Shown here piece after piece: positions 4,084-4,543 of a DNA stretch of 4,543 bases (position 1 is its first letter; each line of letters opens with the position of its first letter). This stretch comes from a virus (Duplodnaviria > Heunggongvirae > Uroviricota > Caudoviricetes). The position numbers were made by a program, and so were the translations under genes. Below the pieces are notes generated by a model. The model had not been told where the DNA came from and did not search any database. It worked only from the letters and a program-made list of their open reading frames with translations. The stretch lies in IMG/VR virus record IMGVR_UViG_2698536484_000031. The stretch is one strand, 5' to 3'.

Positions 4084-4440
4084 TATACAATTTGAATATT
4101 TAATTATATTTACTTAATGTATTTCTATAAAAGCAAATTACAAACTCACAACAAAAAACCTCATAACACATTAACAATCAATTCTTTTCATCTTTATAAA
4201 TTCTCATATCAGGCTTGCACCCGATAAACCGACGAAAACTATTTAAAACCCATCGAGTGAAGTAATCTCTAAAACCAAAGAAATACCAAGTGAAAATATT
4301 CACGATAAAATGCCCGGTCAAAGCCCCTCCTGTACCGCATGCAAGAACAGTAAAAAATCAGATGTTTTCATAAATATCAGTCCTCATCGTTTTGCCTGGC
4401 ATGTCCTTTACCAGCAATCTTCTGTATGCACTAAGCCTAG

Positions 4441-4543
4441 GGAAGGTGCGAACAAGTCCCTGATATGAGATCATGTTTGTCATCTGGAGCCATGGAACAG
4501 GGTTCATCATGAGTCATCAACTTACCTTCGCCGACAGTGAATT
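4441..4543 (+). mobile_element. IS5 terminus (terminal inverted repeat plus start of transposase); the element continues beyond the window end
   Basis: GGAAGGTGCGAACAAG at 4441-4456 matches the IS5 terminal inverted repeat as I recall it, and the following sequence matches the IS5 end. The 4 bp immediately outside (CTAG, 4437-4440) fit the IS5 YTAR target preference. Confidence 0.9.
4509..4543 (+). CDS. insH: IS5 transposase InsH, first 11 codons (MSHQLTFADSE...), 3' end beyond the window
   Basis: ATG at 4509-4511 followed by AGT CAT CAA CTT ACC TTC GCC GAC AGT GAA, giving MSHQLTFADSE, the N-terminus of IS5 InsH as I recall it. Confidence 0.85.
   Translation, partial: MSHQLTFADSE

Follow-up and report, generated by a model that had tools for sequence, protein, structure and literature searches.

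Insertion of IS5 at a CTAG in the nin region of an Escherichia coli lambdoid prophage, with a probably little or modest effect on the early-right operon

The window, by which we mean the whole analysed stretch of 4,543 bp, ends in the first bases of an IS5 element, and we find it quite probable that this is a simple insertion at a CTAG of the nin region with little or modest effect on the phage genes behind it. The element would have transposed recently, and in a strain-specific manner, into a lambdoid prophage of the 933W/Stx-phage type, and to judge from the gene order it sits in non-coding DNA of the nin region, within an apparently intact and N-dependent early-right operon. The other end of the same insertion was in all likelihood recovered on a second contig, and that contig carries the early genes that the window does not reach.

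Features of the window

The coordinates of the features are collected in Table 1. The NinI-like phosphatase gene continues with its 3' part beyond the window start, and the HNH gene, which has an additional, sub-threshold Pfam match to AP2, is the first gene downstream of the insertion on the strand that is transcribed from pR. The transposase gene ins5A points the same way as the cargo ORF and thus head-on, or antisense, to the nin genes and to pR transcription. The spacer at 4007-4436 holds mechanical ORFs only, without family matches. A promoter scan of the window gave 9 sites, fewer than the 15.5 of shuffled sequences, and for this reason we do not claim an internal promoter for Q.

Table 1. 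Coordinates of features in the 4,543-bp window.
Feature	Position	Strand	Evidence or remark
Ser/Thr phosphatase (NinI-like), N-terminal 169 codons	1..507	-	Pfam Metallophos, E = 4e-16
ninG (Rap-like recombination protein)	504..1106	-	Pfam PF05766, E = 2e-83
HNH endonuclease	1081..1647	-	HNH_3, Pfam PF13392, E = 4e-11; annotated in relatives
(AAATAG)x12.8 hexamer VNTR	1842..1918		TRF; upstream of cargo ORF
Cargo ORF, 590 aa (617 aa from ATG at 2153)	2234..4006	+	annotated hypothetical protein in relatives
AT-rich non-coding spacer, cargo stop to IS5 target	4007..4436		GC 27-33%
Strong hairpin after cargo ORF	4038..4101	+	inner stem 4050-4060/4074-4084, followed by A/U-rich sequence
CTAG target, left copy of 4-bp target-site duplication	4437..4440		abuts IS5 end
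IS5, first 103 bases, transposase-proximal (5') end	4441..4543	+	element continues beyond window
IS5 16-bp terminal inverted repeat GGAAGGTGCGAACAAG	4441..4456	+	direct reading
ins5A transposase start (MSHQLTFADSE...)	4509..4543	+	offset as in annotated CDS of L013 (1678; IS5 start 1610)

The cargo protein belongs to PHROG 9230, a family of unknown function, and searches of its 590 aa gave no Pfam, PADLOC or PDB match. The ORF is widespread, with 3,501 blocks in the collections, about 245 complete genomes and the Stx1 phages SH2026Stx1 and AU6Stx1, and wherever it was seen it lies antisense within the nin region. Its GC content is about 33% and that of the surrounding island about 27-38%. Compared to phage 434, which lacks the cargo, the island is a low-GC segment of about 3.4 kb with the HNH gene, the VNTR and the cargo ORF (window ~1023-4440 and some 25 bp more), and it stands in place of ninF and of the initial ~90 nt of ninG, which gives NinG a different N-terminus. 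Homology to 434 resumes about 25 bp past the CTAG, inside the former ninF start, so the IS5 target lies just inside the right edge of the island.

The hexamer VNTR is hypervariable: relatives that are otherwise identical differ mainly, and almost solely, in its copy number. The forward primer of the MLVA locus TR1 of E. coli O157, whose repeat is AAATAG (PMC2246123), matches 1750-1769 exactly, and for the published reverse primer no site was found within three mismatches. In some genomes the repeat yields spurious annotated ORFs (ISISIS.../FLFLFL...).

The hairpin begins 30 nt and ends 95 nt after the cargo stop and is by RNA folding a nested and very stable structure (-20.9 kcal/mol, z = -4.9, none of 200 shuffles as stable). 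The 13-nt loop is why a simple scan for terminators did not pick it up. It is probably the terminator of the cargo gene, as predicted from the fold.

IS5 and its target site

The last 103 bases of the window (4441-4543) are identical, 103 of 103, to bases 1-103 of a complete, annotated IS5 of 1,195 bp (L013:1610-2804, the matching part being 1610-1712), and in E. coli genomes the same sequence is annotated as 'IS5-like element IS5 family transposase' (megablast, E ~1e-50). They directly abut a CTAG that stands empty in the relatives, which bears out the original prediction of an IS5 end at 4441 after a CTAG target. The outermost bases, GGAAGGTGCGAACAAG at 4441-4456, conform to the terminal inverted repeat of IS5, GGAAGGTGCGAA(C/T)AAG, and the complementary inverted end, ...CTTATTCGCACCTTCC, is present in L013 and on the second contig, L016. 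The first 103 bases of the element, with 11 codons of ins5A, are thus seen in the window and the last 111 bases on L016; the visible ends are 98-100% identical to full-length IS5, and both contigs stop about 100 bases into the element. The window has only four CTAG, where shuffled sequences have 10.9 on average, so a CTAG abutting the IS5 end by chance would be an event of about 0.1%. CTAG is the commonest target duplication of IS5, and the element is said to prefer it in AT-rich DNA that is easily melted or bound by H-NS (PMC5493358); the AT-rich margin at the target (GC 27-33%) fits this preference.

About 245 complete E. coli genomes, including strains labelled O26 and O103, carry positions 1-4440 of the window at about 100% identity, and among the matches listed every best genome ends exactly at 4440. 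The comparison with IS5-free relatives that had been proposed gave an uninterrupted site with a single CTAG, which reads ...aagcCTAGatagaatcc... / ...actaagcCTAGatagaatccactcag... (L001 16437-16440) and recurs at 12204-12207 of L006, a locus in genome NZ_CP182026; the continuous empty-site sequence was seen in L001, L002 and L003-L012. The ninE stop codon begins 70 bp beyond the CTAG in L001. The left junction, that is flank, CTAG and IS5 in a row, occurs in none of the 5,426 complete E. coli genomes, and its exact sequence was not found in IMG/VR, the GTDB species-representative genomes or the JGI metagenomes either, nor did exact look-ups of two mechanical ORFs that run across it give any match.

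The reference IS5 itself is flanked by CTAG at 1606-1609 and CTAA at 2805-2808 of L013. The duplication is imperfect, which suggests that a base has mutated there or that two copies of IS5 have recombined. Nine bases (taagcctag) are shared by the left flanks of this copy and of the IS5 in the window, presumably by chance, given the thousands of IS5 copies that exist.

The reciprocal junction

From the empty site we predicted what the right junction should look like (the distal end of IS5, CTAG and the flank on the ninE side) and then searched for it. The genome and metagenome collections gave no match, and IMG/VR gave one, on a contig of 10,383 bp (L016, IMGVR_UViG_2698536484_000002). Read in the orientation of the window, L016 has the last 111 bases of IS5, ending in ...ttattcgcaccttcc, then CTAG (10272-10269), then atagaatccactcag... 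and ninE. Over 8.7 kb its identity to the IS5-free L006 is 99.76%. When both contigs are aligned to L006, the flank from the window reaches to 12207 and that from L016 starts at 12204. The two share exactly four bases, CTAG, as is characteristic of a simple insertion of IS5 that duplicates 4 bp of its target. The other IS5 end and its duplication, for which a search had been suggested, are in this way accounted for as CTAG, provided that the two contigs share one insertion, and the duplication then follows the Py-T-A-Pu rule of IS5, usually CTAG.

We infer that they do, and that both contigs belong to one genome or clone, since both junctions are very rare and exactly reciprocal and each contig ends about 100 bases into the repeat. 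Short-read contigs typically end like this, some 100 bases inside a repeat, and the IS5 repeat explains the assembly break at the window end. An assembly artefact was considered and rejected, as there is an independent contig with the exactly reciprocal junction and the expected duplication.

Operon context of the insertion

Of the lambdoid early-right operon the window itself holds only the part with HNH, NinG and phosphatase, and the rest has to be read from L016 and the relatives. Toward IS5, L016 has by Pfam the genes for N, an stk-like kinase, cI, cro, cII, O, P, a Lar-like ORF, Dam and NinE. N is 127 aa long (N_peptide PF25694, E = 2e-15), and the cI product of 235 aa has an S24 peptidase domain. 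Between cro and cII a boxA-like sequence, CGCTATTTT, was seen by eye at 5767-5775 and a boxB-like hairpin, TCGCTGACAAAGCGA, at 5798-5812 (TCGCT-GACAA-AGCGA), and we regard the pair as a candidate nutR-like site. The GACAA loop is one that we take to resemble the P22-type boxB.

In L006 the genes that follow on the far side of the CTAG are the cargo ORF, HNH, NinG and the phosphatase, and after these come a Q-type antiterminator and the lysis genes. L003, L005, L006 and L009-L012 have the complete gene order, on through NinE, cargo, HNH, NinG, phosphatase and Q, and Q follows the phosphatase in all relatives examined, the next gene being an antiterminator (PF03589) in L001 and L003-L012. Together, L016 and the relatives give cro-cII-O-P-nin-Q on a single strand, with cI pointing the other way. 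As had been anticipated, the early-right promoter is outside the window, past its end: L016 and L006 have cI and, leading up to the site, cro-nutR-cII-O-P-...-dam-ninE. Some 4.8 kb separate pR from the insertion, and from there it is another 4.6 kb or so to the start of Q; ninB, dam and ninE are upstream of the insertion and HNH, ninG, phosphatase and Q downstream. The original prediction that IS5 lies upstream of the nin genes therefore holds for HNH, ninG and the phosphatase, and fails for ninB, dam and ninE. Its view of the transcript stands, since by the gene order in relatives RNA from pR must cross IS5 and then the antisense cargo gene before it reaches HNH, ninG, the phosphatase and Q. 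One refuting case named beforehand was a duplication outside operon DNA; the one seen here is within the operon. At this CTAG, IS5 breaks no coding sequence.

Some relatives have lost the early region. In 18 complete genomes a truncated dam stands beside an IS91-family transposase and the immunity and replication genes are gone, and in a second deleted form a truncated xis-int is joined to dam. Such deletions are found in L001 (16689-18410), L004 and L007 (12625-14177) and L008 (12456-12848). These relatives are remnant prophages beside yfaA-gyrA, and in L001 the terminase and Rz genes are frameshifted too.

The existence of such deletions bears on how the far side of IS5 should be read. If the DNA behind the window IS5 were something other than ninE, for instance after a deletion or inversion mediated by IS5, L016 would stem from another strain. 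The window ends within IS5 and so does L016, so a rearrangement between two IS5 copies is conceivable; the window is furthermore gap-free and without a single mismatch to the deleted-class L001 and L004, and prophages of this family have often lost the early region in association with an IS (the 18 genomes of the IS91 type; L007 and L008). A source of that type would have no pR operon to affect. The intact-class loci, however, match the window apart from the number of VNTR copies or 1-2 SNPs, and ninE-dam-ninB is contiguous with the cargo in most relatives (155 of ~245 genomes). The left junction is absent from all 5,426 genomes, the right one has a single IMG/VR match, and the one is the exact counterpart of the other at the same CTAG; with so rare a site and such junctions, two independent IS5 events are unlikely. 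We therefore hold a rearrangement to be very improbable. It is L016 that makes the operon context of the source decidable, and from the window without L016 it would have been undecidable.

Transcription across IS5

A single insertion into an intact operon leaves the question of what the element does to the transcript. Between the ninE stop and the HNH start there are about 2.86 kb, with the antisense cargo gene in full, in which the sense strand has no conserved ORF. With IS5 this gap becomes about 4.06 kb, and the distance from pR to Q grows by some 13%, which at typical elongation rates would amount to tens of seconds. IS5 would thus add about 1.2 kb without a sense-strand gene between ninE and HNH-ninG-phosphatase-Q, and N-modified polymerase would have to cross it after ninE. 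The effect on Q expression would be small or, at worst, a modest delay or decrease and not a block, because the pR transcript already crosses an antisense gap of ~2.9 kb and would be antiterminated by N. That the effect is little or modest seems likely to us, its size being our estimate from these considerations.

Adhya et al. reportedly described the N-modified polymerase as a polarity suppressor in 1974. According to PMC12360218 and PMC2147009 (citing Adhya et al. 1974), polymerase modified by N or Q suppresses polarity. The antisense cargo stretch is also present in the pR operon of the Stx1 phage SH2026Stx1, which was obtained by mitomycin C induction and gives clear plaques at high titre (PMC6013618). 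The promoters of ins5A and ins5CB are reported to be weak (PMC11894529, PMC11677980). A literature search on IS5 together with polarity and antitermination returned nothing specific.

The original prediction saw the insertion as strongly polar, so that IS5 would end or strongly attenuate the delayed-early transcript from pR, Q would be low, and the prophage would be defective or clearly delayed. There are reasons to take this seriously, as the element separates pR from Q in what appears to be an intact operon, its 1.2 kb without a sense-strand gene is a potential substrate for Rho, and a hairpin with a U-tract lies about 30-77 nt inside the IS5 3' end on the strand that is traversed. In DLP12, moreover, unmodified transcription that enters IS5 from the 3' end is inferred not to traverse the element (PMC11677980). 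Against this, N and a nutR-like site are present and the polymerase, once modified by N, would suppress polarity, while ~2.9 kb of antisense, non-coding transcript are already tolerated in an inducible and plaque-forming relative. Terminator-like matches on the traversed strand of IS5 are moreover at chance level (one weak site, against 1.2 expected from shuffles), and the fold at its entry end is not significant (z = -0.5). Two phages with an IS in a comparable place, 434B and Sf6, also speak against a block, and we consider strong polarity unlikely.

The IS5 known as nmpC::IS5, from the late region of DLP12 (qsr') and from phage 434B (OL657227), is 98% identical to that of the window over the shared end, the CTAG flank included. 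In 434B, too, ins5A runs against an antiterminated phage operon and in the same direction as an antisense cargo gene, which there is a porin, and a full IS5 lies between Q and the holin and lysis genes that the phage needs. Its late transcript has to cross IS5 in the same orientation as here, and the phage still propagates. The two cases differ in that IS5 interrupts the porin coding sequence after codon 346 in 434B, whereas the insertion in the window is intergenic, and in that the operon is the Q-dependent late one in 434B and the N-dependent delayed-early one, upstream of Q, in the window. Unlike nmpC::IS5, the element of the window is also separated from the cargo stop by 434 bp that include a strong hairpin. 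In the 434B record (L014 2208-5799) the 'region of 434 nonhomology' consists of Q, nmpC::IS5 and the start of the holin gene, with the crossover in ylcG, and 434B appears to have taken the late-control region of DLP12 (qsr'), IS5 included, from its K-12 host. A search of the literature on phage 434, IS5 and the porin found nothing.

Sf6 (AF547987) carries IS911 in its nin region, upstream of ninH, the phosphatase and Q and with the transposase antisense to pR, and is viable. When deletions of IS911 arose in experimental evolution, lysis was faster and bursts were smaller, and by qPCR the onset of late transcription was unchanged by the deletion (PMC5630979). The shorter lysis time once IS911 is removed argues for some cost of an IS in the nin region and favours a polar IS5, while the equal onset of late transcription with or without IS911 counts against it. 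The parallel has its limits, as IS911 is an IS3-family element with another transposition chemistry and disrupts ninG itself, and as Sf6 is a headful-packaging, P22-like phage in which the fitness effect was partly attributed to terminal redundancy.

IS5 is also a classical resident of other temperate phage genomes, namely lambda KH100 (in cI) and P1. In lambda KH100 the insertion inactivates the repressor gene. The P1 record notes that its IS5 is identical to that of lambda KH100; the P1 copy lies outside a lambdoid operon context.

IS5 and the cargo ORF

It had also been proposed that IS5 could influence the adjacent cargo ORF, by relieving silencing of an AT-rich gene or by activating it in some other way, as happens at bgl, glpFK, flhDC and fucAO. 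The K-12 cases glpFK, flhDC, fucAO and bgl involve the same IS5 and the same target rule, Py-T-A-Pu and usually CTAG, in AT-rich, easily melted DNA. The cargo island, with its GC of ~27-38%, is a plausible target of H-NS because it is so AT-rich, and at bgl the H-NS-dependent activation by IS5 is tolerant of position and orientation (PMC2753651). In the known activations, however, the element sits upstream of the promoter with its 3' end proximal (PMC2753651, PMC11894529). At glpFK a phase-dependent bend/IHF region of 177 bp is responsible, and flhDC has IS5 in the same orientation, while at fucAO a fusion promoter reads through IS5 and out of its 3' end (PMC2753651, PMC11894529). The bend/IHF region, called IB, works only when close to, in phase with and upstream of the promoter (PMC2753651).

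The geometry here fits none of these mechanisms. IS5 is downstream of the cargo gene, 434 bp past its stop and at least 2.2 kb from its start, and it is the 5' end that faces the cargo, not the activating 177-bp IB region of the 3' end, which faces the 3' end of ninE. A promoter of the fucAO type would read out of the IS5 3' end and away from the cargo, and downstream insertions at bgl are very rare and near the promoter (PMC5493358). As the only neighbouring gene with a promoter is found beyond the IS5 5' end, at a distance of over 2 kb, the mechanism is not transferable, and activation of the cargo ORF by IS5 strikes us as hardly credible.

If there is any regulatory influence between the two, it would more plausibly run from the cargo ORF to IS5, by read-through into ins5A, than in the other direction. 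At nmpC::IS5 in K-12, transcription from the nmpC promoter, which points the same way as ins5A, continues into the transposase gene and turns this copy of IS5 into the main donor for transposition (PMC11677980). In the window, the hairpin after the cargo stop probably limits read-through of this kind.

Implications

The IS5 of the window is an ordinary, rare and strain-specific insertion in a prophage of pathogenic-type E. coli. Insertion sequences within antiterminated operons of lambdoid phages are already known from nmpC::IS5 in DLP12 and 434B and from IS911 in Sf6, and IS5 itself from KH100 and P1, while the nin-region CTAG is a new site for IS5 relative to the 5,426 complete E. coli genomes that were searched. 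Its rarity, with none of these genomes and one IMG/VR contig, makes the insertion a possible lineage marker for the source strain.

That the insertion has made a functionally distinct variant of the prophage, in which Q and lysis come later or depend more on N through an IS5 attenuator, or in which cargo read-through drives ins5A, is in our opinion decidedly doubtful. If it were true, a conditional IS5 attenuator that delays Q would stabilise the cargo-bearing prophage, and read-through from the cargo would make the window IS5 a dominant donor and couple IS5 mobility to cargo expression. A measurable delay of induction, if true, would be a natural example of prophage timing tuned by an IS, a concept already covered by 434B, Sf6 and DLP12.
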